Shown here piece by piece: positions 11,653 through 59,671 of a stretch of DNA of 60,852 nucleotides; within the stretch, counting starts at the first letter, position 1, and each line of letters starts with the position of its first letter. The stretch comes from a virus (Duplodnaviria; Caudoviricetes). A program made the position numbers and the translations under genes. The notes below the pieces were generated by a model. The model searched no databases and was not told the DNA's origin. It worked only from the letters and a program-made list of their open reading frames with translations. The stretch lies in the IMG/VR virus record IMGVR_UViG_3300035156_000177, positions 1 to 60,852 of that record; one strand, written 5' to 3'.

Positions 11653-11996
11653 TGCCGAAGGGCTACCCGCTGGTCCCACGAGACCCTGCCGCGACCATGC
11701 ATCCATATCGAAATGCTCATCGGCGAGTCAAGAAATCTCGCGGTCGGGCCAGCGAGCTGCTGTGCTGGGGATGCAGGAAGCCCGCTGTCGACTGGTCGCA
11801 CATCCACGGCACCGATCCCCACGACCCCGAGAACTACCAGCCGCTGTGCCGGAAATGCCATTACGACTACGACACCACACCGGAACGCATCGAAGCGATC
11901 CGCGAAGTCGGCAAGAAAAACGCTGGCCGCAAGCGGCCGGACAACATCGAACGCAACCAGCGTCGAGCGAAGATCTACCACGGAAAGGCCGCCTGA
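11649..11996 (+). CDS. HNH-type (homing) endonuclease-like protein
   Basis: H.RV...RG.A...CWGC...DWSH...NYQPLCRKCH; lower GC3 than neighbours. Confidence 0.75.
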   Translation: MMPKGYPLVPRDPAATMHPYRNAHRRVKKSRGRASELLCWGCRKPAVDWSHIHGTDPHDPENYQPLCRKCHYDYDTTPERIEAIREVGKKNAGRKRPDNIERNQRRAKIYHGKAA

Positions 11997-12130
11997 TGGG
12001 GCAGATTGGGACTTTCTCCTACCCCGAAGAGACGGTGTGGGGGTGGATCGCCCGCATGGTCGGGGTGTCGCTGGCCATGGGTCTGATCATCGGGCTCCTG
12101 GCCTGGATCACCGCCGTCATCCTGCTATAA
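11996..12130 (+). CDS. small membrane protein
   Basis: TGATG coupling; single hydrophobic helix. Confidence 0.5.
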   Translation: MGQIGTFSYPEETVWGWIARMVGVSLAMGLIIGLLAWITAVILL

Positions 12131-12184
12131 CTGTCGGACCTCCCCGCAAGACTGAACGTTCCACCTACCCCAGAGAGGCCAGAG

Positions 12185-12964: not shown

Positions 12965-13031
12965 GTCAACGAGGGGCGCGGCTCGGACAACGCGCACCCA
13001 ACCAACCGGGCACCCAACCCAGAGGAGCAAC

Positions 13032-13961
13032 ATGCCCAAGATCACCCGCAAGACATCCGGCGCTCGCAAGATCGGCGTCTACGCCGGCGACCCGCCGACC
13101 CCCGGCGTCTACCACGGCGTCATCACGTCGGTGTCTTTCATCACCTACGACAGCGGCACCCAGGCCATCAACGTCGGGGTCAAGCTCGAGGCGCCGGACC
13201 CCGACAGCCCGAAGGCCCAGTACGACGGCTACCCGTCCTGGACCAAGCTGTTCCTTGGCGACGAGGACTTCAAGGTCGAGCGCGAGAACGCCTTCTACCG
13301 GGCGGTGGCCGGCAAGGAGGACGTCGACATCATCGTCGGCGAGACCAACGACAAGGGGGCGGCCCAGATCGAGAAGATCGGCAACAAGAAGCCGGTGGGC
13401 ACCCCGGTGCTCGTCGACCTGATCCTCGGCAACGAGTACCAGGGAGAACGCCGAATCGAGGGCCGGGCGGTCTACCCGGTCACCGAGCGCAAAGCCGCCC
13501 CGGCAGCGCCCAAGGGTGACGGCCTGGCCGAGGACGACCTGATCGCCGGTCAGATCTCCGACACCGCGGCCGCCGAGTTCAGCGGGGCAGCAGCGGCTGA
13601 TGAGCCGGAGGTCGACGACAAGGTCGAGGTGCAGGCGGAGGCCCCGGCCAAGGACGACGACCTCGACCATCACGCGATGTCGGCGCCCGCGCTGCGCAAG
13701 TACGCGGCCAGCAAGGGGATCGAGGTCAAGGGCAAGGTCAAGGCCGACCTGCTCGCCGCGCTGGACGCCCTGCAGGGCGGCGGGGAAGCGGTGGGGGAGC
13801 CCCGGACCGCTGAGGACCTGGAGAAGATGACGGTCGACGAGATCAAGGCCTGGGCCAAGCCCCAGACTGAGAACCCCGAGGACCTTGACGACTACGAGGA
13901 CGACGACAAGGACGGGCTGATCGAGATGCTCGTCGAGCTGGAGTTCGTTACCGCCTTCTGA
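13032..13961 (+). CDS. putative ssDNA-binding protein with acidic C-terminal small helical domains
   Basis: P.PGVY N-terminal pattern; acidic linker; LRKYA...GI.....KADLL.AL repeats; synteny. Confidence 0.6.
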   Translation: MPKITRKTSGARKIGVYAGDPPTPGVYHGVITSVSFITYDSGTQAINVGVKLEAPDPDSPKAQYDGYPSWTKLFLGDEDFKVERENAFYRAVAGKEDVDIIVGETNDKGAAQIEKIGNKKPVGTPVLVDLILGNEYQGERRIEGRAVYPVTERKAAPAAPKGDGLAEDDLIAGQISDTAAAEFSGAAAADEPEVDDKVEVQAEAPAKDDDLDHHAMSAPALRKYAASKGIEVKGKVKADLLAALDALQGGGEAVGEPRTAEDLEKMTVDEIKAWAKPQTENPEDLDDYEDDDKDGLIEMLVELEFVTAF

Positions 13962-13967
13962 GACCGG

Positions 13968-14004
13968 GACCGCCGTCGATTTCCCCACTTCCCCGGCGGC
14001 GGTC
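13968..14004 (+). terminator. stem-loop after the SSB-like gene (terminator or processing site)
   Basis: GACCGCCGTCG pairs with CGGCGGCGGTC (11 bp, one G-U). Confidence 0.5.
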
Positions 14005-14008
14005 TCTA

Positions 14009-14085
14009 GGGCCGGGTGGACGCACCCACATGGATAAAGGGCGCCGAAGGCGCACCGAGGAGGTTCGAGCCCTCCAGGCCCACGC
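14009..14085 (+). ncRNA. tRNA-like structured RNA candidate without a canonical anticodon arm
   Basis: GGGCC/GGCCC closing stem, D-loop-like ATGGATAAA, GCGCC-GAA-GGCGC hairpin, perfect T-arm GGAGG-TTCGAGC-CCTCC. Confidence 0.55.
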
Positions 14086-14113
14086 ATGTACCCACCCACC
14101 CCAGGAAGAGACC

Positions 14114-14293
14114 ATGCCCCCACCGAAGAGATACGGATACGCTGAGGCCGCGACCTACCTCGGCATCAGCGAGCGCACCCTGCGCCGGATCAAGAACGCC
14201 GGCGGCGGCATCCGCTACTACAAGGTCGGGCGCCGGATCGAGTTCACCCAGGCCCAGCTCGACGAGTGGCTCAAAAACCAGGAGAACGCATGA
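14114..14293 (+). CDS. excisionase-family HTH DNA-binding protein
   Basis: EAATYLGIS.RTLRR...IRYYKVGRRI.F....LDEWL. Confidence 0.85.
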   Translation: MPPPKRYGYAEAATYLGISERTLRRIKNAGGGIRYYKVGRRIEFTQAQLDEWLKNQENA

Positions 14294-15081
14294 TCGCCCT
14301 AGTCCTCGGCGGCGACGTCGCCGCCATGGTCGCCACCTACGCCATCACCATCAGCGACCACAACGGGGGGTGTCGGGCGATCGTCCCGTCATTCGACGGG
14401 ACCGTGTCCCTGATGTGCCCGGTCACCAACGACCTCGTCCCCGCCGGCATCCCCGCCCTGGGCAAGGCCGCTGAGCCCCGCAAGGTCTACCTGCAGCCGT
14501 CCGGCCAGGCCGAGGACTGGGCCGACAAGGTGGGCCGCCCCGACCGGATCGCCGAGCACTTCCCCCACAACGGGGCCACCGAGTTCTTCGCCCATCTGTC
14601 GCGGGACCTGTTCAACAGCCTGGCCCCCGGATTCGCCTCGTTCATCGGGCCTTGGCAGATGGACAGGCAGGCGCTCGGCGACATCGTCAACGCCATGCAC
14701 CCCGACGTCATCATCAACACCCTCCCCCGGCAGCTGCTGTGCGAAAAGCCCGACGACCACGGCTTCCCCCGTCAGCAGGTGTGGGTGTCGCATCTGGTCG
14801 GTCCCCAGATCACCGACAACCAGGTCCTGGTCAACGCCGAGGACGCACCGGCCTGGTACACCGCGTCGAAGTTCGACGGGCACCTGGTCACCAAGTGGCT
14901 CGGCCAGAAGCCACCGTTCAACTCCATCCAGGAGGACAGCGTTCCGATCTCGACCAACTGCGACTGTGCCCCGTTCGGGATGGTCCACGTCGGCGCCGAG
15001 GCCCGCTGCAACCCCGTCCTCACCCTGGCCGACGTCTACTCCGACACCGTCGGCGCCGTAATGGCCGGGGCGAGCGTCTGA
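14290..15081 (+). CDS. putative oxidoreductase-fold protein (degenerate Rossmann motif)
   Basis: N-terminal ALVLGG..AAM; IINTLP; resemblance only. Confidence 0.45.
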   Translation: MIALVLGGDVAAMVATYAITISDHNGGCRAIVPSFDGTVSLMCPVTNDLVPAGIPALGKAAEPRKVYLQPSGQAEDWADKVGRPDRIAEHFPHNGATEFFAHLSRDLFNSLAPGFASFIGPWQMDRQALGDIVNAMHPDVIINTLPRQLLCEKPDDHGFPRQQVWVSHLVGPQITDNQVLVNAEDAPAWYTASKFDGHLVTKWLGQKPPFNSIQEDSVPISTNCDCAPFGMVHVGAEARCNPVLTLADVYSDTVGAVMAGASV

Positions 15082-20856: not shown

Positions 20857-23324
20857 TCACCCCAGAGCACGAGCGTCTGCTGTCAGAGCGGCACGCCATC
20901 ACCCCACAGGTCGCCGAGGACTTCGGGATCTACTCCGTGACCACCGTCGACCAGCTGCCCACAGAGTTCGCCTGGGTGGGCGAGGAGGGGCTGCCAGGCC
21001 TCGTCTTCCCCTGGGTGTCCACCTCGGGCGACAAGGTGCCCCAGTACCGCCCCGACACCCCCATCGAGGTCGAGGACGAGGACCGCCCCCGCAAGTACCT
21101 CTGGCCCAAGGGCTCCGGCTCGGTGATCGGGGTGGTCCGGGAGGACGACAGCGACCTGGCGATCATCGTGGAAGGCACCAAGCAGGCCATCGTCTGCGCC
21201 GCCTACACCGAGGTGGGGTCGGTCTACGCCGTCGCCGGGTGCCGCAACTGGTCCGAGGACGGGGTGCCCAACGCCGACCTGTCGGTGGTCGAGGACAAGC
21301 GCGTCCTGGTCATGTTCGACGGCGACGTCCGGACCAACCTCGACGTGTGGACCGCCGCCAACCGGCTCAAAGAGGCCCTCATCCCCGAGGGCGCCACCTC
21401 GGTCGAGTTCGTCAACGTCCCCGCCGCCGGGACCGCAGCCCTCGACGACGTCCTCGCGCGCCGGCCCGAGGACAAGCGCTCCCCCTACGTCACCCGCCTC
21501 CTCAAGACCGGCAAGGCGAACCTCGGCGCCGCCCCCAAGGCCAAGCCCCGGCGCCGCAAGACCGACGCCGACGGCCGCCCCGTGGTCACCGTCAACGGGG
21601 ACCGCTACACCGCCATCGAGACCCTCACGGCGGCCCTGGTGAACCGCTACGACGCCGACGTGCTGTTCAACTTCGGCGGGCTGATCGCCCAGCGCCAGGG
21701 GGCGGCGATGGCCCCGGTCACCCACGGCATGTTCCCCCGCCTGGTCCACACCGCGGCGATGTGCATGGCCCTGAACGCCAAGGGCGAGGTCGTGGCCTCA
21801 GAGCCCTCCCAGCAGGTGATGAGCGCCTGCCTGCACAGTGCTGAGTTCTTCTCCCCGCTGGAGAAGATCGCCCAGGCCCCGTTCGTCCGTGAGGACGGCA
21901 CCATCTGCCAGACGTCGGGCTACGACGCCCAGTCCGAGACCTACGTGGTCCTCACCCCCGAGCTCGAGCGGATCGACGTGCCCGAGTTTCCCACCGCAGT
22001 CCAGCGAGAAAGAGCACTCGCCGACCTGCATCACTGGCTGATCGACTTCCTGGCCATCATGCCCACCGACGCCGACAAGGCCAACGCCCTCGGCCTGGTC
22101 CTCACCCCGTTCGTCCGGGGCCTGTGCGGCACGGTGCCGCTGGCCGTGGTCAACGGGCTGCAGATGGGGGTGGGCAAGAACATGTTCGCCGACATCCTCT
22201 CCCTGCTGGTCACCGGCGAGCGCGCGGCCGCCCTGCCCTGGTCGAAGGAGGACGAGGAGAACCGCAAGGTGATCACCGCGGCCTTCCGGTCCGGGGCCAA
22301 GCTGTTCGTGTTCGACGAGGCCCACAAGATCGAGGGGATCTCACTCAGTCGGGCCCTGACCGGGGACACCTACACCGACCGGATCCTGGGCTCGTCGACC
22401 AACGTCGAGCTGCCCAACAACGTGACCTGGGTGGCCCTGGGGAACAACGTCACGGTCAACGGGGACACCTCCCGCCGGTACTACACCATCCGCCTCGAGC
22501 CCCAGACGCCCAACCCCCAGGACCGCTCGGCCGACGCCTTCACCCACGCCGACGTCCGGCAGTACACCCTGGACAACCGGGTGGCGCTGCTGGAGGCCCT
22601 GCTGACCCTGGTGCGGGCCTGGTTCGTCGCCGGGCAGCCCCAGAGCGCCGCGGGGCGCCGGTTCGGGTCGTTCGAGTCCTGGGGTGGGATGGTCGGCGGG
22701 ATCCTCCAGGTGGCCGGCGTCGAGGGCTTCCTGGGCAACCTGGTCGAGACCCGTTCGGAGTCCGACTACGAGCGCACCTACTGGCTCGACCACTACCGCT
22801 GGCTCACCCGGAAGTTCGGGGTGGGCACCAGTTTCACGGTCGGTTCAGTCGTAAGAAAGCTCCTGGAGGACGGTCCGGGGACTGCTGAGTGTCCTCCGGG
22901 GCTCGAAGATCCGGAGGCCAAGGGGTACAACCGGCGGCTCGGACAGGCCTACCGGCACCAGAAAAACAAGGTTTTAGACGATCTGCAGCTGATCCAGAGT
23001 CGTCGGTCGGACCACCACGGGAACTCGTGGACGGTCGTGGTTCGTGATCGGAGCCTCCAAAACCCGGCCAAAGAGCCCGAAAAAACCTTAAAACTGGGTG
23101 ATAGGGGTATTAGGGGTGTTAGATCTAACGTAGATTCTAAATGTGCGAGGCTTCGCACGAATGAACCTAGTGAACCGATACCTGTAGAGACCGATACGCG
23201 TTTATTGGCCGAGAGGACGAAACCTAACACCCAACATCACCCCTATCACCCCGACGGCCTCTCGGAGGTCCTGGAGGGGCTGAACGGCCGTGAGGGTAGT
23301 CGAGCAAGGTTCAGAAGGGTATGA
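20853..23324 (+). CDS. DNA primase (TOPRIM-like)/helicase fusion
   Basis: Q.RPD.P...KY, IVEGTKQA, FDGD; C-terminal P-loop GLQMGVGKN, VFDE, RILG.S, GNN. Confidence 0.85.
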   Translation: MITPEHERLLSERHAITPQVAEDFGIYSVTTVDQLPTEFAWVGEEGLPGLVFPWVSTSGDKVPQYRPDTPIEVEDEDRPRKYLWPKGSGSVIGVVREDDSDLAIIVEGTKQAIVCAAYTEVGSVYAVAGCRNWSEDGVPNADLSVVEDKRVLVMFDGDVRTNLDVWTAANRLKEALIPEGATSVEFVNVPAAGTAALDDVLARRPEDKRSPYVTRLLKTGKANLGAAPKAKPRRRKTDADGRPVVTVNGDRYTAIETLTAALVNRYDADVLFNFGGLIAQRQGAAMAPVTHGMFPRLVHTAAMCMALNAKGEVVASEPSQQVMSACLHSAEFFSPLEKIAQAPFVREDGTICQTSGYDAQSETYVVLTPELERIDVPEFPTAVQRERALADLHHWLIDFLAIMPTDADKANALGLVLTPFVRGLCGTVPLAVVNGLQMGVGKNMFADILSLLVTGERAAALPWSKEDEENRKVITAAFRSGAKLFVFDEAHKIEGISLSRALTGDTYTDRILGSSTNVELPNNVTWVALGNNVTVNGDTSRRYYTIRLEPQTPNPQDRSADAFTHADVRQYTLDNRVALLEALLTLVRAWFVAGQPQSAAGRRFGSFESWGGMVGGILQVAGVEGFLGNLVETRSESDYERTYWLDHYRWLTRKFGVGTSFTVGSVVRKLLEDGPGTAECPPGLEDPEAKGYNRRLGQAYRHQKNKVLDDLQLIQSRRSDHHGNSWTVVVRDRSLQNPAKEPEKTLKLGDRGIRGVRSNVDSKCARLRTNEPSEPIPVETDTRLLAERTKPNTQHHPYHPDGLSEVLEGLNGREGSRARFRRV
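23096..23252. repeat. iteron-like inverted-repeat element (copy A), putative replication origin
   Basis: GGGTGATAG-GGGTATTAG-GGGTGTTAG facing inverted copies; AT-rich core; inside the primase-helicase 3' end. Confidence 0.75.
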
Positions 23325-28933: not shown

Positions 28934-28972
28934 ACAAAGCCCCCGTCCCTGTGAGGAGGACGGGGGCTTTGT
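28934..28972. terminator. bidirectional terminator between convergent operons
   Basis: ACAAAGCCCCCGTCC pairs perfectly with GGACGGGGGCTTTGT (15 bp). Confidence 0.85.
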
Positions 28973-28977
28973 GCTGT

Positions 28978-29232
28978 CTACGACCGGGCGATCAGCTGTT
29001 TGATCCTCTCACGGGACGCGCCGGCCTTCTTGACCCGGTCCTCGCCCCAGCCCTTGGCCAGCAGCCCGTCGCGGACCATCTGCTCGATCTCGGCGTAGGT
29101 GAGGTTGGCGTCGCGGTGCAGGCACGCCATCGACGCGGCGCTGGACCGCATCCGCTTGGCCACCTCGTCCTCGGCGCGGAGCTTGACGTGGAAGTCCTGG
29201 ACCACCGAGGCGACCAGGTCCGCCACGATCAC
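28978..29232 (-). CDS. small protein, possible HTH-like regulator
   Basis: GTGA-coupled; LTYAEI...GASRERIKQLI resembles a split HTH. Confidence 0.6.
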   Translation of the reverse strand: MIVADLVASVVQDFHVKLRAEDEVAKRMRSSAASMACLHRDANLTYAEIEQMVRDGLLAKGWGEDRVKKAGASRERIKQLIARS

Positions 29233-29492
29233 CCGGCGTCCTGACCGGGCAGGCCGGCGATCAGCAGCAGCACGACGATCAGCGGCAGCTCGACGGCGAA
29301 CCAGGTCTGCAGGTAGACCATCGCGGGCACGGTCTGCTTGCGGGTGATGGTCTGCAGCACCCCGCCCTCCCCCCACGACTGCTGGTGTTGGTCACCGTCG
29401 GGCTTCCAGGACGAGACCACGGTCACCAGCCCCGCGATCACTGTGGCGAGGACCGTGGCTACGATCAGCCCCGCCTTGACTCCGATGTTCAT
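29229..29492 (-). CDS. two-TM small membrane protein
   Basis: ATGA-coupled; two hydrophobic helices. Confidence 0.7.
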   Translation of the reverse strand: MNIGVKAGLIVATVLATVIAGLVTVVSSWKPDGDQHQQSWGEGGVLQTITRKQTVPAMVYLQTWFAVELPLIVVLLLIAGLPGQDAG

Positions 29493-31516
29493 GCTTGTGT
29501 CCCCTTGTCCCTGTTGAATGAGAGGTGGACGTGCCCCTCGTGGTTGGACGCCCCCGAGTAGGGCCGCCATCCGTCTCCTGACCTATCCAAGGTCCAGATC
29601 TGGTTGTTGTGGATCACCTGCTCGACCCCCAGCTGCCGGGCGTTCGCTCGGGCCCAGCGCGAGATGTCGAACCCGAGCTGCTTCCTCGACCCGGTCATGA
29701 TGTCGCAGGCGTGGCCGGTGTAGTGGAACGAGTTGGCTACGTGCCCCGACTTCTGGATCGCGCAGTCGGCGACCCTGACCTTGATCGGGAAGTGCTTCAT
29801 GACCAGCTCGCGGCCGCGCGCGGTGTTCGGGGCCATGTTGTCGGAGCGGATCGGCCAGCCCGCGGGAGGCCCGCCCTTGAGGGTGGCCTTGGCCAGGCTC
29901 GGCGTGCCCTTGGATCCGATCTCGAAGACCCTCAGGCGGCGCTTGTCGCCGGTGAAGACCTTGACCCCGATCATGTTCCCGAAGACACCCTCGGGCTCCC
30001 GGTTGCCCTTCTTCTCGCCCTTGCGGAACCCGACGTCGGTGACGTCGCGGATCCCGATGCGCTTGCCGGTGGTGAACGACCAGGTCTCCATCGAAGCCGG
30101 GCCGTTGGTCTTGCCGGACAGGATGGTCAGGATCTTCCCGCTCACCCCGAACCCCTGCCGCATCCCCGGGGCGGTCTTGATCTGGACCCCGATCTCCTTC
30201 TTGGTGGCCATGTCGTAGAGCCGGTACTTGTTGCCGCGGCGGATGACCGCCCGGTCGGCGTGGGGGTCGATGCTGATCTCGCCGTGCCAGCCGGTCTTGC
30301 TCTGGCTGCCGCCGTCGATCGTCGTCCCGCCCCGGTAGGGGAACGAGACCACGGTGTCGGAGACGTCGGCGTAGACGATGCCCTTGCGGACCCCGATCCC
30401 GGTGGGGTGCATCTCGCCTCGGACACGCATCTCCGAGACCTGCTGGCCGGCGCCGTTGAGCTGGTGGACCACCGCGGCGTTGTTGCCGGTGGTGGCCTTG
30501 GCGACGTACCAGTACGGGCCGTCCTTGGCCATGGTCTGGAAGTTCCCGGCGCCCGAGGGGTTGAGGCTGATGACCTCGCGGACCGTGCCGTTGATGTCGC
30601 CGGTGGCGGTGCCCAGACCGGGGTCGCCGGTCGGCGGCTGGGCGCAGTCGGTGGGGTTGGGCACCGGGTCGTTGGGGTCGGCCTGCATGGCGTTGGGCAG
30701 TTGCTCGACACGGACCCCGGGCTGGTTGGGGACGAGGTTCTCGTACTGCGGCGCGTCGCTCTGGGCGGAGTGCCGGGTCGACCAGGGGTAGTACGGGCTG
30801 CGGCCGTTGGCGACGCTGTCACGCGCCACCTCGAGGGCCTTGCGTGCGTTGGCGTACGGGTCCTGCCAGTTCGGGATCTTCCAGTACTGGTCGTTCAGCT
30901 GCCACATCCCCCGCATGGTCCCGGCTCCCACCGTGGGGCCGACGGCCTTGGGGTTGAACGAGGACTCGTGCTTGGCGATGGCGATGAACATGGCGATCCA
31001 CTTCTTGGGGAACCCCGCCCGGGAGAGGGCGTCGGCGGCCAGCTCGGCGCCGGAGAGCTCCTTGGTGGTCGACAGGCTCGCGGGCTGTACGGTCCCTCCC
31101 CCGCTCTGTGGGGGCGTGCCGGGCTGTTCGACGGGCACGGTGGCCAGGGTGGGGCAGCACGACGCCAGGGCGGCCTCGTAGGACGCCTGGCCGGTGCTCT
31201 GCCAGGCGGCCGACAGCGGCGTCTCGGGGGCGTTGGCGCCGTACTTGACGTGGGCGACGAAGTCCTGGCGCCACATGTCGATGATCCCGATCCCGCCCAT
31301 CACGGTCTTGTGGATCTGGGCGTACGAGGGCTGCTTGCCGGTCTGGCTGATGTCGTGCAGGAACGTCCCGGCGATGCCGGTGTACTCGAGCCCGCGGACG
31401 GCGGGGATGGTGGTGACCTGGGGGCCGCAGTTGACCTTGACCTCGGTCTGGTTGACCGCCACGGCGCCGGCGATGAGGACGGTCGACACGATGATCGGGG
31501 TCCAGTGGACAGACAT
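29489..31516 (-). CDS. exported multidomain peptidoglycan hydrolase: SLT/lysozyme-like + beta-propeller + M15-like peptidase
   Basis: N-terminal signal/anchor; AIAKHESSFNP.A...GMWQLN...DP..NA...PWST; SFH..G.ACD...NHEGHVHLSF; TGATG-coupled start at 31516. Confidence 0.8.
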   Translation of the reverse strand: MSVHWTPIIVSTVLIAGAVAVNQTEVKVNCGPQVTTIPAVRGLEYTGIAGTFLHDISQTGKQPSYAQIHKTVMGGIGIIDMWRQDFVAHVKYGANAPETPLSAAWQSTGQASYEAALASCCPTLATVPVEQPGTPPQSGGGTVQPASLSTTKELSGAELAADALSRAGFPKKWIAMFIAIAKHESSFNPKAVGPTVGAGTMRGMWQLNDQYWKIPNWQDPYANARKALEVARDSVANGRSPYYPWSTRHSAQSDAPQYENLVPNQPGVRVEQLPNAMQADPNDPVPNPTDCAQPPTGDPGLGTATGDINGTVREVISLNPSGAGNFQTMAKDGPYWYVAKATTGNNAAVVHQLNGAGQQVSEMRVRGEMHPTGIGVRKGIVYADVSDTVVSFPYRGGTTIDGGSQSKTGWHGEISIDPHADRAVIRRGNKYRLYDMATKKEIGVQIKTAPGMRQGFGVSGKILTILSGKTNGPASMETWSFTTGKRIGIRDVTDVGFRKGEKKGNREPEGVFGNMIGVKVFTGDKRRLRVFEIGSKGTPSLAKATLKGGPPAGWPIRSDNMAPNTARGRELVMKHFPIKVRVADCAIQKSGHVANSFHYTGHACDIMTGSRKQLGFDISRWARANARQLGVEQVIHNNQIWTLDRSGDGWRPYSGASNHEGHVHLSFNRDKGTQA

Positions 31517-31791
31517 CACTTCCCCTTCGAGCGCAGGACGAAGCTGAGCAGAATCGAGACGATGCCGACCGCGCAGCACACCAGCTGGACGCTGTTGGGG
31601 AGCGAGGACATCATGGTCCCGCCCAGCGAGCACCCCGTCCCGATGATGCCGAGGTTGGTGCCCAGCGACGCCTTCTTCTGGGGCTGGGGCTGGACGCCCT
31701 TGCTGTCGGCGCGCTCGTAGGTGGTGGCGCGGACGTGGACGGTCTTGCCGTTGCGCGTGTAGCTGTAGGGCTTGCGGTGCACCGTGGTCAT
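31516..31791 (-). CDS. small two-TM membrane protein with basic N-terminus
   Basis: coupled on both sides; YTRNGKTVHVR then two hydrophobic segments. Confidence 0.7.
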   Translation of the reverse strand: MTTVHRKPYSYTRNGKTVHVRATTYERADSKGVQPQPQKKASLGTNLGIIGTGCSLGGTMMSSLPNSVQLVCCAVGIVSILLSFVLRSKGK

Positions 31792-33974
31792 TCCGAGAAC
31801 CCCCAGCCCTGGACGGGGCCGCCGGGCCGGGAGGCGCCGACGAGGTGGGTCAGGTGGAAGTTGTCGTCGGTGCCGGTGGGCGCCAGGTCGTAGCCATCGG
31901 GCTCAGGCACAACATCGTTGCTCGGCGTGGGCTCTTCTTTGCGTATCGGTGTCACAGACGCAACTTCCTTGTCTACTGGCGCAACTTTCTTGCGTACGAT
32001 CCGGCGCTTCCGCTTCGCCTCGGTGGCTGCGGCCTGCTCCTCGGTGGGGGTGGTGAGCACGTACGGCTCGCGCTCGACCAGGGACGCCTTGAAGTGCCGC
32101 TTCTTGGTCTCGACCGGCTTCTCGTCGTCGATCACCTTGCCGTCGATCGTCATGGACGGGCCGCGGTAGGTGAGCCGGGTCAGGTGGACCTTGCGGTTGT
32201 TCCCGGCCCCGGCGATGTTGAACATCGGCTGCAGCGCGTGGATCTCGGCCTTCTCCATGGCGACTGCCAGGTCGTGCCCGGCGACGACGCAGGACATGGT
32301 GAAGAGTGCGTGCTTCTCCCACCACCGGCAGTCCTGAACGGTGCAGATCGGGCACTCGCCCTTCCACACATCGTCCCTGCGGTGCTCTTTGTAGCGGCGC
32401 TCCCGGTTGTTCGTCTCGCCGGTGTAGATATGACCGATCTTCCTGTTCTTGAGATATCCGAACGTCCGGTACAGGTAATGCGGCCTCTGCCCGTTCCGCA
32501 ATTCGCGGGCCAGGTCCCGGGTCATCATTCCCTCGGGTAAAGTCCCGGTGGTCATGACGTGGCGGATATGGACCTTGGTGACATTAGCGGTTCTGAACTT
32601 AGCTTTCTGACCGCTTTCGGTGACATAGAAACCCACACCCGGCATATCGAACGGAATGGAGGTGCAGGGAACCCCATCGCTTTCACTGATACCGAGGGCC
32701 GCCTTTGTCGCCTCGGCGGTCATCTGACGAAGGCTGACTTTCATCTGGAATGCCTTGCCGATCCCGCCGATCTCGGCCACGGTGGCGGCCTGGACGCCCA
32801 TCCAGACGAAGTCCTTGGTGCGCCGACCCTGGGACATGTAGACGCCCATGTTGGTGTTCGCCATCCCCTTCTGGAACAGCGGAGCGACGTCCAGGCCCTC
32901 GTCGATGATTGTCCACTGGGCCCGGAACTCATCGGTCGGGTGCTCGAGCTCCTCGCCCGGTCCGAACATCCGGTCGGCCCTGGCCTGGCGCCGGTGCAGC
33001 TCGTGGCGCATCTTGAGGAAGTGCGCCTCGGCCTCCTCGAGCACTCGGTTGTGCACCTCGTCGTCCTCGACGTCCTCGTCCTCTTCGGGCCCGATGTAGG
33101 TGACGATGCGGATGCGGCCGTTGGCGAAGGACTTGCCTTCCCACTGCTTGAACCAGGCGAACTCGCTCTTGGGGTCGATCAGGGTCATGTCGGTCGGGGT
33201 GCCCGGGAGCGAGGGGTCGAGGTTGTCGCGCAGCAGGTCGAAGAACGCGTTCCAGATGAACTTCGACTTGCCGGCGTTGGAGGTCGCCGAGATCTGGAGG
33301 TTGTAGCCGAACGGGACGGTGGCCGCGTTGCCGTCGTTGAGCCACCCGAAGGTCAGCGACCTCGCACCGGACGGGGGTAGGTCCAGCACGGTCCGGGGCG
33401 CCTCGAGGGGGCTCTTCTTGTAGAAGGTCAGCCATGCCGAGCCGGTGGTGACGGGGCTGACCGAGACTTCCTGGCAGTCCATGATGCCGGGGAGGATGGT
33501 GACGGCGTCGGCCGCGATCCGGGCCAGGTCGCCGCCGACCTTGCCGGGGTTGACCATGGCCTTGATCTCCCCGGTGGAGGTCATCTTCTTGGCGTAGAGC
33601 TTGGGCTCGACGTTGGTGAACGGGCGCTTCGGCCCGGTGACGTAGATCTCCCAGCGGGCGTCGGTGTCGCCGAACTTGTTGGTCGAGGAGAACACGTTCT
33701 TGAGCAGCTGCAGGAACCCGCCCTCGACGCCCTCATCGCGGAGGTCGGTGAACCGGTCGTACACCTTGAGGAAGCCGACCCACAGCCCGAGGCCGGCGAG
33801 GACGCCGAGCACCATGCCGCCGCCTTTGAAGATGTCCCCGGTCCACCCCCAGAACTTCCACCAGGCCAGCAGGACCAGGAAGGCGAAGATGCGGGGCGGG
33901 AAGTCCAGGACGGCGCGGTTGGGGTTGCGGACCCAGCGGTAGAGGGCGGGGACCTCGAGGAGGAACTTCTTCAC
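31788..33974 (-). CDS. membrane-anchored FtsK/SpoIIIE (TraB/TcpA-like) ATPase with C-terminal GIY-YIG-like domain
   Basis: two N-terminal TMs; ISATSNAGKS, LIDPK, EL.RRQ, IIDEG, QGR...Q, PGVGF; then YLYR...IYTGETNN..RR.KEH...A...EK.EI....P.FN. Confidence 0.8.
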   Translation of the reverse strand: MKKFLLEVPALYRWVRNPNRAVLDFPPRIFAFLVLLAWWKFWGWTGDIFKGGGMVLGVLAGLGLWVGFLKVYDRFTDLRDEGVEGGFLQLLKNVFSSTNKFGDTDARWEIYVTGPKRPFTNVEPKLYAKKMTSTGEIKAMVNPGKVGGDLARIAADAVTILPGIMDCQEVSVSPVTTGSAWLTFYKKSPLEAPRTVLDLPPSGARSLTFGWLNDGNAATVPFGYNLQISATSNAGKSKFIWNAFFDLLRDNLDPSLPGTPTDMTLIDPKSEFAWFKQWEGKSFANGRIRIVTYIGPEEDEDVEDDEVHNRVLEEAEAHFLKMRHELHRRQARADRMFGPGEELEHPTDEFRAQWTIIDEGLDVAPLFQKGMANTNMGVYMSQGRRTKDFVWMGVQAATVAEIGGIGKAFQMKVSLRQMTAEATKAALGISESDGVPCTSIPFDMPGVGFYVTESGQKAKFRTANVTKVHIRHVMTTGTLPEGMMTRDLARELRNGQRPHYLYRTFGYLKNRKIGHIYTGETNNRERRYKEHRRDDVWKGECPICTVQDCRWWEKHALFTMSCVVAGHDLAVAMEKAEIHALQPMFNIAGAGNNRKVHLTRLTYRGPSMTIDGKVIDDEKPVETKKRHFKASLVEREPYVLTTPTEEQAAATEAKRKRRIVRKKVAPVDKEVASVTPIRKEEPTPSNDVVPEPDGYDLAPTGTDDNFHLTHLVGASRPGGPVQGWGFSE

Positions 33975-34006
33975 GGGAGGCCTTTGGTCTGGGAGGGGGA
34001 GGTAGG

Positions 34007-34037
34007 GGCGCCCCGCACGGGTGAGGTGCGGGGCGCC
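34007..34037 (-). terminator. internal hairpin (attenuator or stabiliser) after the first gene of the minus operon
   Basis: GGCGCCCCGCAC pairs perfectly with GTGCGGGGCGCC (12 bp). Confidence 0.7.
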
Positions 34038-34043
34038 GGGTGG

Positions 34044-34283
34044 TCAGGGCGCGATGCCCTTGGTGGGCTTGCTCGCTGCGTTCTTGGCCGCGGCGAACTT
34101 GTCGCCTCCGCCGGACAGCGAGCCGACCAGGATTCCGCTGCCGACCTCGCCGGTGTCGCGGACGTAGTTGACGCCGGTTGCGGCGGAGTTGATCCCGTCG
34201 ATCCGGGCCCAGCATCCGATCGCCAGTGCGGCGATGACGAATGCGCCGGCGAGCCACCGGCTGAGCGTTCCTTTCTTGAACAC
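34044..34283 (-). CDS. small membrane or secreted protein (79 aa)
   Basis: GAGAGG RBS, GTG start; basic N-terminus, hydrophobic helix, Gly-rich tail. Confidence 0.7.
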   Translation of the reverse strand: MFKKGTLSRWLAGAFVIAALAIGCWARIDGINSAATGVNYVRDTGEVGSGILVGSLSGGGDKFAAAKNAASKPTKGIAP

Positions 34284-34352
34284 GATGGTTCCTCTCGGTT
34301 GTGAGCCCTGGGGCTCCGGTGGGGGAGACGCCCTCGCCTTCGGTTCTCGGCT

Positions 34353-34427
34353 GAGTAGACAGAGAGCCGGTCCCCGACAGAGCTGCTCCCCCATGGGGCT
34401 CTGCCGCGGACCGGCCTCGGCGTACTC
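34353..34427 (-). other. long interrupted hairpin in the 5' leader of the minus operon
   Basis: nested pairings GAGTA/TACTC, GCCGGTCC/GGACCGGC, CAGAG/CTCTG, CCCC/GGGG. Confidence 0.6.
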
Positions 34428-34904
34428 GCCTCCTCCCGGCCTCGATGTCGTCGGGTAACACGCTACCGGTAGTGCGCTACCAAAGCGAGCAAACATGTGC
34501 CGTTTTCCGTGCGAATGTTGAACTTTGTTGCGTGCGGGGTTAGGCTCGGCGCGCATCCACTCGCTTCGCTCGCTGCGCGCGCCGGACCGGCTCCTCCCTC
34601 GACGAGTCCCGATCCGCTAGAGTTGGGCCCACGTCTTCCGCTCCGGTGCTGGCACACCGTCCGCAGGTTCCACCACAACCTCGATGCGGTCGACGTCAGA
34701 CTTCCGAAGCCACCTCGTCGAGTCCCCGATGTCACCGCTCGATCAGGTTCTGGCCACCTGTTGACACATCCGTCGCCCGTATGCTGTGCGTATGCCACCT
34801 GCTCTCGTGCTCTCCCGGATGCACCAGGTTCCGAGGACGCTCTCCAGCGTCTCGGGCTTGTTCGTGCCTTCTGGCTCTGCCCTTCTCCAGGGGGGTGTGG
34901 GGGG

Positions 34905-36617
34905 ATGGCGGTGAAGATCTTCAAGCTGGCCCGGTGGACGGGGCCTTGGGGTGTGGACCTGATCCAGGGGGTCAAGTACATCCGGATGAGGAGCGGCAAG
35001 ATCCGCTACGTGATCGCCCAGGCGGAGAAGGTCCGGGGTCAGGACGAGGAGGACACGGTTTTCCGGGAGACCGACGGCGACGGGAACTTCGTGGCCACCT
35101 GGGTCCAGAAGCGCGGCGGTCACGGGTCGAGTTTCGGGTTGGACGAGATCGACGGGGACCTGTGCGTGTGGCAGGGGCATCTGGTGAAGGGCGTCGGCTG
35201 GTGGCCGCTGGGCCGGCCCGGTGAGTTCCATCCCGTCAAAGGTGTTCCGAACGGCGACGTTTCTGTTGATCCGAAGGACGATTTGCTGTCGGTGCGTCGC
35301 GGTAACCGCCATATTGTCTACGCGCTGTCATCTGTGAAGGACGGCGCACCGATTGTGTTGGCCGATACGACGGTTCCGTCGTGGGGGAAGCGGTTTCAGG
35401 GTTCGATGGTCACACAGCTCGCCGACGGCCGGATCGCGCAGCTGGTGCACCGTGATGTCGAGTCGAACGGGGCGTCGCGGGCGCACCGGTTCGTGATCGA
35501 GAAGGGCGAGCTCGTCGAGGACGGGTGGGTGGACACCGCACCGTTGCCGGGCAAGACGTCGAGGGAGGCCGAGGGGTTCCTCGAGGAGGAGGGCGTGATC
35601 AGTGCGACCTTCCGGATCGGCGGGAACAACTCGTCGAGGACAGTGATGGCGGTCCCGCTGCAGTGGCAGGGCCTTGTCGAGGTGGGCTGCGACAGCCCGC
35701 CCCCAGAGATTCAGGAGCTCGAGATGGCCAAGGACTACACGACCGGATATGGGTGGACCGCGTCGCCGGACCCCGACACGTGGGGCGGCAACGCGACGAT
35801 CGACTGCTACGGGACCAAGTTCCGGGTGCGCCGGGACCTGGTGATCGGGAGCAAGGACGGCATCCTCGCCGACGCCTTCCGCTACCTGATCTTCTCGTTC
35901 AACCGGCGGGTGGAGCGGATCTCGGAGTACGCGAAGGGCGACGACTGGTCGTTCTACTTCAAGGCCAACGCCAACAACCCGAACAAGATCTCCGAGCACG
36001 GCGGCGGGGTGGCGATCGACATCAACGCGACCCAGCACCCCAACGGCGCAAGCAGCAAGTACGTGGGGTTTACCAAGGCCCAGGTCGCCGAGATCGACCA
36101 GATCCTCGATGAGATGGAGGGGATCATGGAGTGGGGCGGCAACTGGCGTTCCACGATCGACGGGATGCACTTCAACATGGCGCCGGGGACGAACAGCACG
36201 GCGGGCAAGAAGGAGGTGGCCCGGGTGGTGGGTGAGCTGCGGAAGCGGATGAAGGCGGACCCGACCAACTTCGGTCTGCCGGGGATGCCGCCGGCCAAGC
36301 CGTTGATCTCGCTGCGGGCGGTCCAGAAGGCGATTGAGGGCCGGGAGCGGCTCGACCTGGGGGAGGACGGGAAGCAGTACCAGACCATGCTCAACCGGTT
36401 CCACGACTATGTCCTCGAGGTCGACGGAATTCTCGGGAAGGACACGCGCCGGTCGACGTCTTTGGCCCAGCTGAAAGTCGCCCAGGGAAATGGCAACACG
36501 ACGTTGGACAAGGACGACTGCTGGCAGGACGGTAAAACCGACTTCCATCCTGACCTGGACGGTATTCCCGGTAAAGAGCTGTTCGCCGCTCTCGGCATTG
36601 ATAACAGTGACTCATGA
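34905..36617 (+). CDS. endolysin: N-terminal beta-propeller fused to M15 (L-Ala-D-Glu-type) peptidase and PG-binding-like C-terminus
   Basis: SEHGGGVAIDIN...WGGNW...DGMHF; VDGILG..T and LDGIPG; adjacent to holin; internal AGGAG plus ATG at 35724. Confidence 0.85.
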   Translation: MAVKIFKLARWTGPWGVDLIQGVKYIRMRSGKIRYVIAQAEKVRGQDEEDTVFRETDGDGNFVATWVQKRGGHGSSFGLDEIDGDLCVWQGHLVKGVGWWPLGRPGEFHPVKGVPNGDVSVDPKDDLLSVRRGNRHIVYALSSVKDGAPIVLADTTVPSWGKRFQGSMVTQLADGRIAQLVHRDVESNGASRAHRFVIEKGELVEDGWVDTAPLPGKTSREAEGFLEEEGVISATFRIGGNNSSRTVMAVPLQWQGLVEVGCDSPPPEIQELEMAKDYTTGYGWTASPDPDTWGGNATIDCYGTKFRVRRDLVIGSKDGILADAFRYLIFSFNRRVERISEYAKGDDWSFYFKANANNPNKISEHGGGVAIDINATQHPNGASSKYVGFTKAQVAEIDQILDEMEGIMEWGGNWRSTIDGMHFNMAPGTNSTAGKKEVARVVGELRKRMKADPTNFGLPGMPPAKPLISLRAVQKAIEGRERLDLGEDGKQYQTMLNRFHDYVLEVDGILGKDTRRSTSLAQLKVAQGNGNTTLDKDDCWQDGKTDFHPDLDGIPGKELFAALGIDNSDS

Positions 36618-40456: not shown

Positions 40457-43400
40457 ATGGCTGACCCCACGACAGTCGCAGGGCTACGAGGGCGGTGGCG
40501 CGCGTCGACCATCGACTCGCCCCCGGTTGACGGGGGTGCCCTGCAGACCTGGACCGACACCTCGGCCTCCGGTGCGCACGCGGTCCAGGCCACGGTCGGT
40601 TTCCGTCCGGTCTACCGGACCTCGGGCGCCGCCCTGCCCAACGGCAAGCCGATCGTGGAGTTCACCTCGGCCAGCTCGCAGCGGGTGGTGGCCACGCTGC
40701 CCCAGAACACGGCGGTCACCCGGTTCCTGGTGATCCGGCTCAAGACGCTGTCGGCCAACCAGTCGGTGACCTCGTCGCCGCTGCAGCAGATCGTCACCAC
40801 CGCAGGTAAGTACTCCACCGGTGTGCAGAACGTGGCGTTCCTGGTCAACGCCACCGGTGCCGCGGTGCTGGCCGTCGACACCTGGTACATCCTCACCGTC
40901 ACCGACAACGGGTCGAACTCCGACACCACGTTCGTCAACGGGGCCCAGGACGGCACGTCGGCGACCGCTCACACGAACACCGGGACCGCGCTCACTATCG
41001 GAGCGAAGACCGACGGCGGCGAGTCACTCAACGGCTACGTCGCGGAGGTCCTGGACTACAGCTCGGTCCTCTCGGCCGCTGACCGGGCCACGGTCCACAC
41101 GTACCTGTCCGACGAGTACGGCATAGCGGTCGCGGACTATGTCGACCCCGCTGCGATCAGCCTGCGCGCGGTCGGTGCTCACACGGCGGCCGCAGCCGCG
41201 GTTAGCCCGCTGGTCCCGACGACGCCAGCGGGGCTGACTGCGGACGACATCTCGATCCTCACCGTGCAGGGCAAGCGTTCGGTGGCGGCCACCGCCCCGA
41301 CGGTCAGCACCCCGGTCGGGTGGACCCTGCTCGACATCACCCACGCTCCAGGGGTGGTGGCCGGGGTGGACACGGGGTCGAACACGGTGGCCACGTTCTA
41401 CCGGGTCGGGACCTACACCGACCCGTCGATCACGACGACCGGGTTCAACTCGGTGGGCGCGGTGATCGTGGCCTACACCCCGGGCACCGGCAAGACCTGG
41501 GTCAACCCCGTATCGACTTCGGGGTCGGACACCACATCGGGTGCGAACGGGGCGATCACGGCGGACGCGGGGCTCGACGTCCAGCCCTACGACCTGGTGC
41601 TCGTGGCGGCCGGCCTGTCCGGTGATGCGGGCACGGTGACCGCGCCGACCATCGGCGGGATGACCGGGGCGACCACCCTCCCGACCGTGACCCAGGTCAA
41701 CTTCGCGGTCACCACTGGCAACGATGTCCGCACCCTGATCGCTGACGAGAAGGTCAGCGCGGGCACCTCCAGTGTCGCGCCGACGTTCGCTTACACCAAC
41801 GCCTCGTCGCTCACGTCGCACGCCCAGTTCGTCCGGCTCCGCGCGGTCGCACAGTCGACCAGCGCATCAGGCACCGGAGAGATCAGTCAGACCTCAGCGC
41901 TCACCTCGACCGGCGAGAAGGGTGCGCAGGCGACGGGAGAGATCAGCCAGTCCTCGACCGTCGAATCGAATGGCACCAAGGCCGCGATCGCCACCGGGAC
42001 GATCAGCCAGAGTTCGACGGTCACCTCGACGGGCGCGAAGTCGACCACGGGTACGGGTGCGATCAGCCAGACGTCGGCGGTCGTCTCGACGGGTCTCAAG
42101 GGGGCCTCGGGCACCGGGTCGGTCTCCCAGACAGACGATTTGACGTCGGTCGGCCTCAAAGGTGGCCTGGGGACCACGACGGTCAGCCAGACGCACAACC
42201 TCACGTCGACCGGCTACCAGATCCGGTCCGGCACTGGGACGCTGTCCCAGACGCACGCCACGTCGTCGGAGGGCACCAAGACGGGCGCCGGGACCACGAC
42301 CCTCGCCCAGACGTCTACCGTCGCTTCGGCGGGGGCCAAGGGCTCTTCCGGGTCCGGCTCGGTGTCGCAGTCTTCGGCGCTGACGTCGACCGGGTTCGGG
42401 ACCGACATCGGCGACATCTTCCTCCCCGAGTACGACCAGACCGAAGAGGTCGGCGGGTCTGGCCTGATCACCCAGACGCACGCCATGACCAGCACCGGGT
42501 CCAAGGCGGGGCAGGGCACCGGCTCGATCGACCAGGCGCACGCCCTGGTCGTCACCTCGGGGAAGGTCTCCTCCGGGACCGCGCAGGTCGCCCAGAGCAG
42601 CGACCTCGCCTCGAGTGGCGCCAAGTTCGGGTCGGGCTCGGGGCAGGTGTCGCAGAGCAACGACGTGTCGTCGACCGGGGCCAAGACTGGCATCGGCACC
42701 TCGGTCCTGTCCCAAACCAACGACCTGACCTCGACGGGTAGCAAGGCGGCTGCTGCGACCGGGTCCGTCGACCAGGCCTCGACGGCCACTTCGACCGGGG
42801 CCAAGACCGGGCTCGGGTCGGGGTCAATCAGCCAGACCAGCACGCTGACGGCGACCTCGGGCAAGGTGGTCACCGGAACGGCGACCCTCAGCCAGGTCTC
42901 CGACGTCACCTCGTCGGGCTCGAAGAGCACGACCGGGACCGGCTCGGTCAGCTCGATGTCCGACCTGACCGGTACCGGTGGCAAGCAGGCATCGGGCAGT
43001 GGCTCGATCACCCAGACGCACACTCTGACGTCGTCGGGGCAGCGGGTGCTGGCCAACCAGGGGTTCGGCTCGATCGACCAGACCCACGCCCTGACCTCGA
43101 GCGGCGCGAAGACCGCAGCGTCGGGGACGGGGCAGATCAGCCAGAGCCACACCCTGGCCGCGGTGTCCGGGAAGGTGTCAGCGGGCACCGCTACCCTTTC
43201 CCAGGCCTCGACCCTGATCACGACCGGCAGCAAGACCGCCGAGGGCAGCGCCACCATCGTCCAGGTGTCGGACCTGACGTCGGCGGGCAGCAAGGTCCAA
43301 GCCAACGCTGGCGCGGTGTCTATTGATCAGCCGAGCGATCTGACCGGCTCGGGGTCGAAGAGCGCTGCAGGTCAAGCCGAGTTGGATGTGCCGAGCAACA

Positions 43401-43960
43401 TCCAAGTTTCCGGGCAGAAACTTGGGTTTGGGCTGGGGGCTGTCGAGCAGACCAGCACCTATACCGGTTCGGGTGCTAAGACCGGTGTCGGGTCCGGGAC
43501 GATCAGTCAGGGGTCGTCGGTCACCGGTGGCGGCGAGACCATCATCGACGCCCGGTCCGGGTCTGGCACCCTCAGCCAGGCGAGCACCCTGTCGGCAGCT
43601 GGCGGCAAGACCATCACCGGCTCGGGCAGCATGACAACCTCGGCCGCTACGACCAGCTCGGTCGGGCTCAAGATGGCGGCCGGGGCCGGGTCGGTCGACC
43701 AGTCGGTGGCCATCACTGTCGAAGACTTCCGGTCTGGTTTCGGGATCGGCCACATCGACCAGGGTTCGGCGCTGCAGGCGGCGGGCAGTAAGCAGGCGGG
43801 CGGGCTCGGGACGGTCGCTCAGACCTCGACACTCTCCAGCTCGGGCGGCAAACTGGTCATCCAGTCGCGCGACATCGACTGCACTTTCACCCTGCTCGGA
43901 TCGCGCTACACCTTCGACGTGGTGCCGAGCCGTTATCTGTTCGAGATGGAGCCACGATGA
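40457..43960 (+). CDS. large virion fibre-like protein: LamG domain, beta-sandwich, long Ser/Thr/Gly 20-aa repeat
   Basis: LamG-like motifs shared with the upstream gene; about 30 repeats of G.G.I.Q...LTS.G.K. Confidence 0.75.
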   Translation: MADPTTVAGLRGRWRASTIDSPPVDGGALQTWTDTSASGAHAVQATVGFRPVYRTSGAALPNGKPIVEFTSASSQRVVATLPQNTAVTRFLVIRLKTLSANQSVTSSPLQQIVTTAGKYSTGVQNVAFLVNATGAAVLAVDTWYILTVTDNGSNSDTTFVNGAQDGTSATAHTNTGTALTIGAKTDGGESLNGYVAEVLDYSSVLSAADRATVHTYLSDEYGIAVADYVDPAAISLRAVGAHTAAAAAVSPLVPTTPAGLTADDISILTVQGKRSVAATAPTVSTPVGWTLLDITHAPGVVAGVDTGSNTVATFYRVGTYTDPSITTTGFNSVGAVIVAYTPGTGKTWVNPVSTSGSDTTSGANGAITADAGLDVQPYDLVLVAAGLSGDAGTVTAPTIGGMTGATTLPTVTQVNFAVTTGNDVRTLIADEKVSAGTSSVAPTFAYTNASSLTSHAQFVRLRAVAQSTSASGTGEISQTSALTSTGEKGAQATGEISQSSTVESNGTKAAIATGTISQSSTVTSTGAKSTTGTGAISQTSAVVSTGLKGASGTGSVSQTDDLTSVGLKGGLGTTTVSQTHNLTSTGYQIRSGTGTLSQTHATSSEGTKTGAGTTTLAQTSTVASAGAKGSSGSGSVSQSSALTSTGFGTDIGDIFLPEYDQTEEVGGSGLITQTHAMTSTGSKAGQGTGSIDQAHALVVTSGKVSSGTAQVAQSSDLASSGAKFGSGSGQVSQSNDVSSTGAKTGIGTSVLSQTNDLTSTGSKAAAATGSVDQASTATSTGAKTGLGSGSISQTSTLTATSGKVVTGTATLSQVSDVTSSGSKSTTGTGSVSSMSDLTGTGGKQASGSGSITQTHTLTSSGQRVLANQGFGSIDQTHALTSSGAKTAASGTGQISQSHTLAAVSGKVSAGTATLSQASTLITTGSKTAEGSATIVQVSDLTSAGSKVQANAGAVSIDQPSDLTGSGSKSAAGQAELDVPSNIQVSGQKLGFGLGAVEQTSTYTGSGAKTGVGSGTISQGSSVTGGGETIIDARSGSGTLSQASTLSAAGGKTITGSGSMTTSAATTSSVGLKMAAGAGSVDQSVAITVEDFRSGFGIGHIDQGSALQAAGSKQAGGLGTVAQTSTLSSSGGKLVIQSRDIDCTFTLLGSRYTFDVVPSRYLFEMEPR

Positions 43961-59466: not shown

Positions 59467-59467
59467 T

Positions 59468-59638: not shown

Positions 59639-59671
59639 TATTTTCTACTGTTTAGCGCACTTGGAGGACCG

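Follow-up and report, generated by a model that had tools for sequence, protein, structure and literature searches.

A Tra/FtsK-type DNA translocase with a predicted C-terminal GIY-YIG nuclease domain in an actinophage genome

Introduction

In TraB-type conjugation, double-stranded DNA is moved by a single FtsK-like pump. For the Streptomyces plasmid pSVH1, excerpts of one report describe TraB and the Spd proteins as interacting with one another, and TraB, SpdB2, Orf108 and TraR as binding peptidoglycan (PMC4447253). According to excerpts of another, the C-terminal helix-turn-helix of TraB reads clt repeats, and a membrane-associated pump of Thermus thermophilus, TdtA, needs a NurA-like nuclease and the restriction enzyme Tth111II, both encoded in its own operon (PMC5365140). 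FtsK-like genes have also been reported in many actinophages, and passages of the corresponding papers propose that they manipulate host development, with no function shown there (10.1101/2024.02.16.580700, PMC11536984, PMC10117723). Here, we analyzed a 60,852-bp stretch of viral DNA, the whole of IMG/VR virus record IMGVR_UViG_3300035156_000177 (hereafter the window), and describe a minus-strand gene within it whose product, P0001, is predicted to combine a membrane-anchored Tra/FtsK-type translocase with a GIY-YIG nuclease domain.

As a Tra/FtsK translocase, P0001 appears to be new in its fused nuclease and in its carrier, a phage. We found no published description of an FtsK/Tra-GIY-YIG fusion in open-access full texts. 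In the excerpted text of PMC10853773, the mention of GIY-YIG concerns Dnd neighbourhoods.

Results

Domain architecture of P0001 and its family

The gene and the parts of its product are as follows (aa, amino acids; ORF, open reading frame).

31788..33974, minus strand: P0001, the fusion ORF, 728 aa with a GTG start; predicted membrane-anchored Tra/FtsK-type translocase plus GIY-YIG nuclease domain.
33759..33896, minus strand: N-terminal hydrophobic region (aa ~27-72) with two predicted membrane helices, from a hydropathy scan.
32547..33689, minus strand: FtsK/SpoIIIE-type ATPase core (aa ~96-476), from the family profile, hhalign and invariant residues.
33264-33287, minus strand: Walker A (aa 230-237).
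32898-32903, minus strand: Walker B (D358-E359).
32175..32495, minus strand: GIY-YIG domain (aa 494-600), with Y502, Y517, G519, R527, H531, E574 and N586.
32310..32354, minus strand: Cys-rich insertion within the GIY-YIG domain (C541, C544, C549, H555), from alignments and a regular-expression count.
31791..32174, minus strand: C-terminal tail (aa 601-728), basic and proline-rich, with a terminal HLTH...G.SE motif.

Searched alone, P0001 gave a single Pfam match to GIY-YIG at aa 510-582 (E=0.0016; 19.1 bits, cut-off 22.6) and no FtsK match at E≤1. The PHROGs collection returned two weak 'endonuclease' families over aa 496-593, and NCBIfam and a single-sequence search of the Protein Data Bank (PDB) returned nothing useful. 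We then relied on the protein family. A HMMER scan of 1.84 billion representative sequences identified 144 relatives of P0001 at E≤1e-3, 66 of them at E≤1e-10 and nine at E≤1e-30. Shorter, fragment-like matches were left out, and the remaining 115 were aligned; they are ~20-25% identical to P0001. The Pfam scan of relatives and the family profile used against structures were based on 80 of these 115 sequences.

At E≤1e-3, FtsK_SpoIIIE (PF01580) was matched by 53 of the 80 relatives (best 5.4e-13) and GIY-YIG (PF01541) by 40 (best 8.5e-9), while FtsK_gamma and helix-turn-helix families were absent among the 10 Pfam families matched. Against known structures, the 80-relative profile matched FtsK (2iuu, E=4e-24), EccC (5.6e-24), a conjugative 'DNA translocase coupling protein' (6o1w, 3.8e-16), TrwB (1.5e-3) and the GIY-YIG domain of UvrC (9.5e-4). 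The original prediction, made from the sequence of the window, had proposed a TraB/FtsK-like core carrying a GIY-YIG domain in the place of the winged helix, and the Pfam results for the family, its profile, hhalign and a profile of the C-terminal domain all bear this out. Single-sequence scores would leave the claim open; at the level of sequence, the domain architecture is settled by the family.

Family members are named 'hypothetical protein', 'predicted GIY-YIG superfamily endonuclease' or 'FtsK/SpoIIIE ATPase' in their sources, and most are metagenomic. By tblastn, P0001 had no match at E≤1e-5 in 50,697 phage records and none in 72,556 plasmid records, and these collections yielded no full-length family member. 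The species genome collection also gave no relative in two scans, each with one or two short peptide patterns, which is weak evidence that cellular genomes lack the family. A consensus-like member, P0017, matched the 'FtsK-like DNA translocase' of cluster-J-type mycobacteriophages at ~25% identity over about half of the query, with none of 238 phage records covering 80% of it. On actinomycete plasmids, P0017 was 26-32% identical to FtsK/SpoIIIE-domain proteins, and its GIY-YIG part separately matched small 'GIY-YIG nuclease' and 'GntR regulator' genes of Streptomyces plasmids.

Some observations on family members and their matches stand apart from the architecture. In the Streptomyces plasmid records H45, H46 and H49, the GIY-YIG part of P0017 is 32-42% identical to regions whose annotation is GntR-family regulator; since plasmids of this kind have their tra genes under GntR control, a link between regulator and nuclease may exist there. 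The 989-aa member P0179 contains a LAGLIDADG_3 (intein-type) domain, and P0181 has T5orf172/MUG113 domains in place of the GIY-YIG Pfam call.

The GIY-YIG domain

The nuclease motif had been placed at about 32210-32480, with conserved Tyr, Arg, His, Glu and Asn in the GIY-YIG order. We located the domain at aa 494-600 (32175-32495), and the predicted order of Tyr, Tyr-x-Gly, Arg, His, Glu and Asn is present in P0001 (Y502, Y517, G519, R527, H531, E574, N586) and nearly invariant in the family. The full seven-residue set occurs in 101 of the 115 aligned relatives; of the others, 13 are partial or deviant and one sequence is without the domain. The domain is thus, by its residue set, apparently catalytically complete.

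We built a profile of the C-terminal domain from nine loci and compared it with the PDB. Eight sequences matched at E≤1 and all eight were GIY-YIG domains, including UvrC (3.7e-3), BH0048 (0.012) and I-TevI (0.15). The Tyr-x-Gly, Arg, Glu and Asn of the family align with the corresponding residues of UvrC. Language-model features over aa 490-604 also fell into GIY-YIG clusters (score 0.88), which we treat as a lead only. P0001 shares with known GIY-YIG nucleases (the UvrC N-terminal domain, I-TevI, UPF0213) the signature residues in canonical order; it differs from them in that its domain is attached to a membrane motor and, in the close subfamily, contains a Cys-rich insertion.

This insertion, noticed originally as CPIC...C, is present as C541-x2-C544-x4-C549 followed by WW..H555. 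A regular-expression count found the same pattern in five of the 115 sequences, and P0003-P0005 have a Cx4C variant. The insertion is a feature of the close subfamily that is missing in most relatives, and it is possibly a zinc knuckle. The HLTH...G.SE motif at the end of the tail is similarly restricted, to six of the 115 aligned sequences; P0001 shares it with five close relatives.

Integrity of the fusion

A joining of two genes by an assembly error or a sequencing frameshift was considered as the origin of the fusion, as the original prediction had advised. Apart from the weak single-sequence Pfam scores, we found nothing in its favour. A 4290-nt contig from a second sample spans 31500-33654 with 0 differences and 0 gaps, leaving the P0001 ORF unbroken, and contigs from four runs contain zero insertions or deletions inside the ORF. 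Moreover, nine loci carry the same single-ORF architecture, always with the GIY-YIG domain at the C-terminus, and the full residue set is kept in the relatives counted above. Because the ORF is intact in the second sample and the fusion recurs in nine loci, we regard an artefact as excluded. The fusion is a trait of the family. At position 33953, in codon 8 near the N-terminus of P0001, all four runs, including the possible source sample, have A where the window has C; no other change is common to the four.

Another explanation regards the GIY-YIG part as a selfish module, a homing endonuclease that joined a translocase gene without contributing to what its product does. Phages commonly carry GIY-YIG homing endonucleases, the weak PHROG matches are to 'endonuclease' families, and the intein-type LAGLIDADG domain of P0179 implies that selfish elements target this gene. 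However, free-standing homing enzymes are expected to carry long DNA-binding extensions, and the domain in P0001 is without them. Its C-terminal position is constant, the fusion gene is translationally coupled to the next gene, and both the fusion and all catalytic residues are kept in the 101 relatives despite ~20-25% identity. We consider a functionless homing module very improbable.

The motor domain

We compared the motor region (aa ~96-476) with plasmid transfer proteins using hhalign. It aligned with Tra of Micromonospora pMR2 (probability 100%, E=1.4e-40) and with Tra of Gordonia pGRS1 (probability 100%, E=2.2e-43), two proteins that end after the motor and are without a nuclease. These alignments indicate that the family is a plasmid-type Tra translocase with what appears to be an acquired GIY-YIG C-terminus.

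The residues G235, K236, D358 and E359 are invariant in all 115 aligned sequences and S237 occurs in 113; all are present in P0001, which also keeps R384 and Q395. Its Walker A reads A230-T-S-N-A-G235-K236-S237, which had been described as atypical. That description holds relative to the family, in which Gly occupies position 230 in 102 of 115 sequences and position 233 in 87 of 115, compared with A230 and N233 in P0001. It does not hold more generally: the GKS is kept, and the motif fits the general P-loop pattern [AG]x4GK[ST].

P0001 resembles actinomycete Tra/TraB proteins (pMR2, pGRS1 and Streptomyces pSVH1 TraB) in its motor, in its N-terminal membrane anchor and in the small membrane-protein genes adjacent to it; pMR2, which carries rep, xis and int genes, has a DUF2637 gene and small ORFs beside tra, and in the related contig L005 a DUF2637 protein is likewise encoded directly upstream of the fusion gene. 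A strongly hydrophobic window of 19 aa occurs within the first 130 aa in 104 of the 115 relatives. Two differences set the family apart from Tra/TraB: the C-terminus is a GIY-YIG nuclease domain rather than a clt-reading helix-turn-helix, and the carriers are tailed-phage genomes without rep or int genes rather than plasmids. With FtsK and SpoIIIE, P0001 shares the ATPase fold family, Walker A, Walker B, the conserved Gln and a membrane anchor, but it lacks the gamma (KOPS/SRS-reading) winged-helix domain (FtsK_gamma in 0 of 80 relatives) and has fewer membrane helices. The FtsK-like translocases of actinophages such as the cluster J mycobacteriophages Omega and LittleE are likewise phage-borne FtsK-type ATPases, yet at ~25% identity over about half of P0017 they have no GIY-YIG part.

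The minus-strand operon

Apart from one minus-strand block, which runs from ~34283 down to ~28978, the genes of coding-type composition in the window are all on the plus strand. The fusion gene is part of this block, whose other features are as follows.

34044..34283, minus strand: opening gene of the operon, for a 79-aa protein that has a single membrane helix; its place upstream of the fusion gene is conserved in L002, L003 and L009/L010.
31516..31791, minus strand: 91-aa protein, with a basic motif at the N-terminus and a membrane helix at the C-terminus; start overlapping the fusion-gene stop.
29489..31516, minus strand: wall hydrolase with a membrane anchor (675 aa when started at the Met at 31516); it has an SLT/lysozyme-like domain, a middle part resembling a propeller and a C-terminal region that matches phrog_32486.
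29229..29492, minus strand: small protein with two hydrophobic segments, 87 aa from an internal Met; homologue in L002.
28978..29230, minus strand: perhaps a sixth small ORF, closing the operon; uncertain start, no family match.
28940..28967, both strands: terminator-like hairpin where the plus-strand genes and the minus-strand operon converge, from a consensus scan only.
34284..34904, no strand: non-coding region of ~620 bp between the operon and the divergently transcribed endolysin gene.

The operon genes have overlapping start and stop codons, and the fusion gene is translationally coupled to the next gene. The hydrolase matched Pfam SLT with 24.3 bits (cut-off 21.3) and contains a membrane segment. 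Like TraB in the TraB-Spd complex, P0001 is linked to wall-interacting proteins. The region at 34284..34904 is likely a divergent promoter region; a consensus scan found no sigma-70-type promoter in 28.0-35.2 kb, and no Rfam family was matched in 34284..34904.

Two further observations concern the block. Between the 79-aa gene and the fusion gene, the minus strand holds a perfect 12-bp G+C hairpin (34006-34037) with a predicted RNA fold of -28.7 kcal/mol (z = -4.5, 0 of 200 shuffles as stable) and no T-run after it, which could be a processing or attenuation site. The hydrolase (30235-30327, aa 411-441) and the endolysin (35250-35342, aa 116-146) have in common a 31-aa motif with 35% identity (E=5e-5, pairwise), which may be a common wall-binding repeat.

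Recurrence of the operon in related loci

We examined the surroundings of related fusion genes. Close homologues of P0001 (55-57% identity) occur in L002 and L003, viral contigs of 68.6 and 76.2 kb, and more distant ones in the viral contigs L004 and L005 and the metagenome contigs L008-L012; L009 and L010 seem to be one element. The small membrane protein encoded upstream recurs in L002, L003 and L009/L010. In L002, L003 and L005, a homologue of the 91-aa protein directly follows the fusion gene, and in L004 the basic motif of this protein forms the N-terminus of the hydrolase itself.

Seven distinct loci extend far enough downstream to be compared, whereas L011 and L012 break off before that point. 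In six of the seven, the gene for a large protein that has wall-hydrolase domains and a hydrophobic N-terminus adjoins the fusion gene or lies one small gene beyond it (the hydrophobic N-terminus was judged by eye except in the window). The domains of this protein are as follows.

Window: SLT.
L002: Exo_endo_phos, plus homology to the window protein (12294-14363).
L003: SLT and Exo_endo_phos (12339-14576).
L004: SLT, M23 and Exo_endo_phos (11700-14096).
L008: SLT_3 and NlpC/P60.
L009/L010: SLT_3 and M23.

Homologues of the window hydrolase are found in L002 and L003. Exo_endo_phos is a DNase I/phosphatase-type domain; the window hydrolase has its propeller-like part and a different C-terminal part instead. 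In conjugation systems of Gram-positive bacteria, wall hydrolases of the CwlT/TcpG type are anchored in the membrane, are encoded next to the transfer ATPase and combine a lysozyme/SLT domain with a second hydrolase domain, and the proteins of the window (SLT), L008, L010, L004 (SLT with M23) and L003 (SLT with Exo_endo_phos) resemble them in domain architecture only.

The first 9000 positions of L008 (1-9000) have bacterial-type flanks, with genes for a LysR regulator and an SMP-30 gluconolactonase; by eye, the translation of a small ORF there also looks excisionase-like. Through L008, the module may also occur in prophages.

Genome and setting

The window is a complete actinophage genome without an integrase. 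Its completeness is 100% according to CheckV, its GC content is ~67%, and the runs containing its DNA are labelled as biocrust or soil metagenomes. It encodes a DnaE-like polymerase, a primase-polymerase, a helicase and a portal, with 37-48% identity to proteins of Microbacterium, Arthrobacter, Gordonia and Streptomyces phages, and it has lysis genes for an endolysin (Peptidase_M15_4) and an r1t-type holin. A tyrosine integrase (Phage_integrase) was found in none of five viral records (the window and four related ones), one of which had a weak serine-recombinase match. Rfam and transfer RNA scans of the window gave no match.

Elsewhere in the window, a plus-strand ORF of 1167 aa (40457-43960) consists mostly of 60-nt (20-aa) Gly/Ser/Thr-rich repeats. 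A minus-strand ORF at 42214-43305 was considered as an integrase and rejected, as it lies inside this repeat gene and matches no family; minus-strand ORFs within 40457-43960 are probably not genes.

Two AT-richer elements of ~170 bp lie 36 kb apart in inverted orientation (23090-23255 and 59465-59645). In both, 9-bp iterons (GGGTGTTAG-like) flank one side and a 58-nt arm the other, and the two arms are 88% complementary to each other. The elements resemble iteron clusters of the origin or operator type. The predicted primase-polymerase ORF runs with its 3' end into the first element, and the second comes after a 1176-aa ORF (55936-59466) that, judging by size and place only, would be a tape-measure gene. 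The 9-mer of these repeats showed no overall enrichment in the window (12 matches vs 7.4 +/- 2.8 expected).

Discussion

A tentative model for the operon

Our preferred reading, which we hold tentatively and at somewhat less than even odds, is that the operon encodes a conjugation-like apparatus that translocates DNA across the envelope and cuts its own substrate. The operon proteins would form an envelope-spanning complex comparable to TraB-Spd, in which an opening in the wall would be made by the hydrolase, while the ATPase, as a ring, would drive double-stranded DNA through the membrane or a septal wall. The GIY-YIG domains would cut the substrate and thereby create or release an end, in a terminase-like cycle of cutting, pumping and cutting. 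The most likely cargo would be replicated, concatemeric phage DNA, delivered to an adjoining cell or hyphal compartment.

It is plausible that such cutting would allow circular or concatemeric DNA to be threaded without a relaxase. The idea of a motor cutting its own substrate gains indirect support from the conjugation-like operon and from the precedent of TdtA and NurA. TdtA/NurA and HerA-NurA also team a pump of the FtsK/HerA superfamily with nucleases of the same operon, and double-stranded DNA is pushed out of the cell. They differ from the system described here in that TdtA works with a separate NurA-type nuclease, whereas the GIY-YIG domain of P0001 is covalently fused to the pump; TdtA also belongs to another ATPase branch and host phylum, and is carried by an integrative element rather than a phage. 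Large terminases offer a further parallel, as a single chain contains both the ATPase that pumps DNA and the nuclease by which concatemers are cut, once ahead of translocation and again when it is over. This analogy is functional only, since the ATPase and nuclease folds of terminases are unrelated to those of P0001 and terminases have no membrane anchor. The phage described here probably also has a packaging module of its own beside its portal gene.

A more specific form of the model is that virulent actinophages move replicated DNA to neighbouring cells or hyphal compartments without virions, the GIY-YIG domain taking the role of a relaxase or terminase. We consider this version rather unlikely.

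Several results weigh against a DNA-delivery apparatus. Two almost constant arginines of the motor are replaced in this copy: codon 406 (32757-32759) encodes Gly in P0001 alone, compared with Arg in 111 of 115 sequences, and codon 412 (32739-32741) encodes Lys, compared with Arg in 104 of 115. These departures and those in Walker A are unchanged in every covering contig of the four runs, and together (406, 412, A230 and N233) they could weaken the ATPase of this copy. Pfam scans and the 9-mer count identified no DNA-recognition domain or clt-like site. L005, the locus with the DUF2637 protein upstream, has no hydrolase adjacent to the fusion gene. A virulent phage has no obvious need for conjugation, and the Exo_endo_phos domain on the hydrolase in three loci could act as an extracellular nuclease, which would fit the destruction of DNA better than its delivery.

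In the strongest rival explanation, the operon serves exclusion or conflict between phages: the membrane motor would seize entering phage or plasmid DNA and reel it in for the GIY-YIG domain to cut, with the hydrolase acting outside. In favour of this, nuclease and motor are united in one protein at the membrane, the operon has its own orientation, as a moron-like block among genes that otherwise occupy the plus strand, and the exported partner carries Exo_endo_phos in L002, L003 and L004. We also searched PADLOC-DB for defence proteins. The relatives P0006 and P0017 gave weak partial ATPase matches to SspH and mad8 (E 1.6e-6 to 1.3e-4), but none of the five window proteins (P0001 and four operon neighbours) matched at E≤0.01. 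Furthermore, the closest annotated relatives are plasmid transfer proteins rather than defence proteins, a dedicated bifunctional wall hydrolase is unexpected for a nuclease on the cytoplasmic face, and protection of the phage's own DNA is left unexplained. On balance we think exclusion unlikely.

A take-over of the host is a further candidate. The chromosome might be degraded or displaced to gain nucleotides or to clear the septum, or P0001 might mimic host FtsK in division or development. This would agree with the proposal, in the literature excerpts cited above, that FtsK-like genes of actinophages manipulate host development, and the phage has its own replisome, so that host DNA would be dispensable. 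However, plasmid Tra proteins (hhalign E 1e-40 to 1e-43) are nearer to the motor than are the FtsK-like genes that isolated phages carry, and a take-over would not account for the linkage with small membrane proteins and a wall hydrolase that is exported. We judge a host take-over improbable.

Under the preferred model of a motor that cuts what it pumps, the fusion of a nuclease to a TraB-type translocase suggests how the substrate of such a pump may gain or lose an end. The presence of the module in complete phage genomes without an integrase indicates that some soil actinobacterial phages possibly move or destroy DNA across the envelope in a plasmid-like manner. The family is unstudied and almost entirely metagenomic, but it has a clear biochemical handle, and the idea could be tested with one purified protein. 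If DNA does spread without virions in this way, it would represent a new route of virus spread in bacteria and would answer how a TraB-type ring handles DNA that has no free end.

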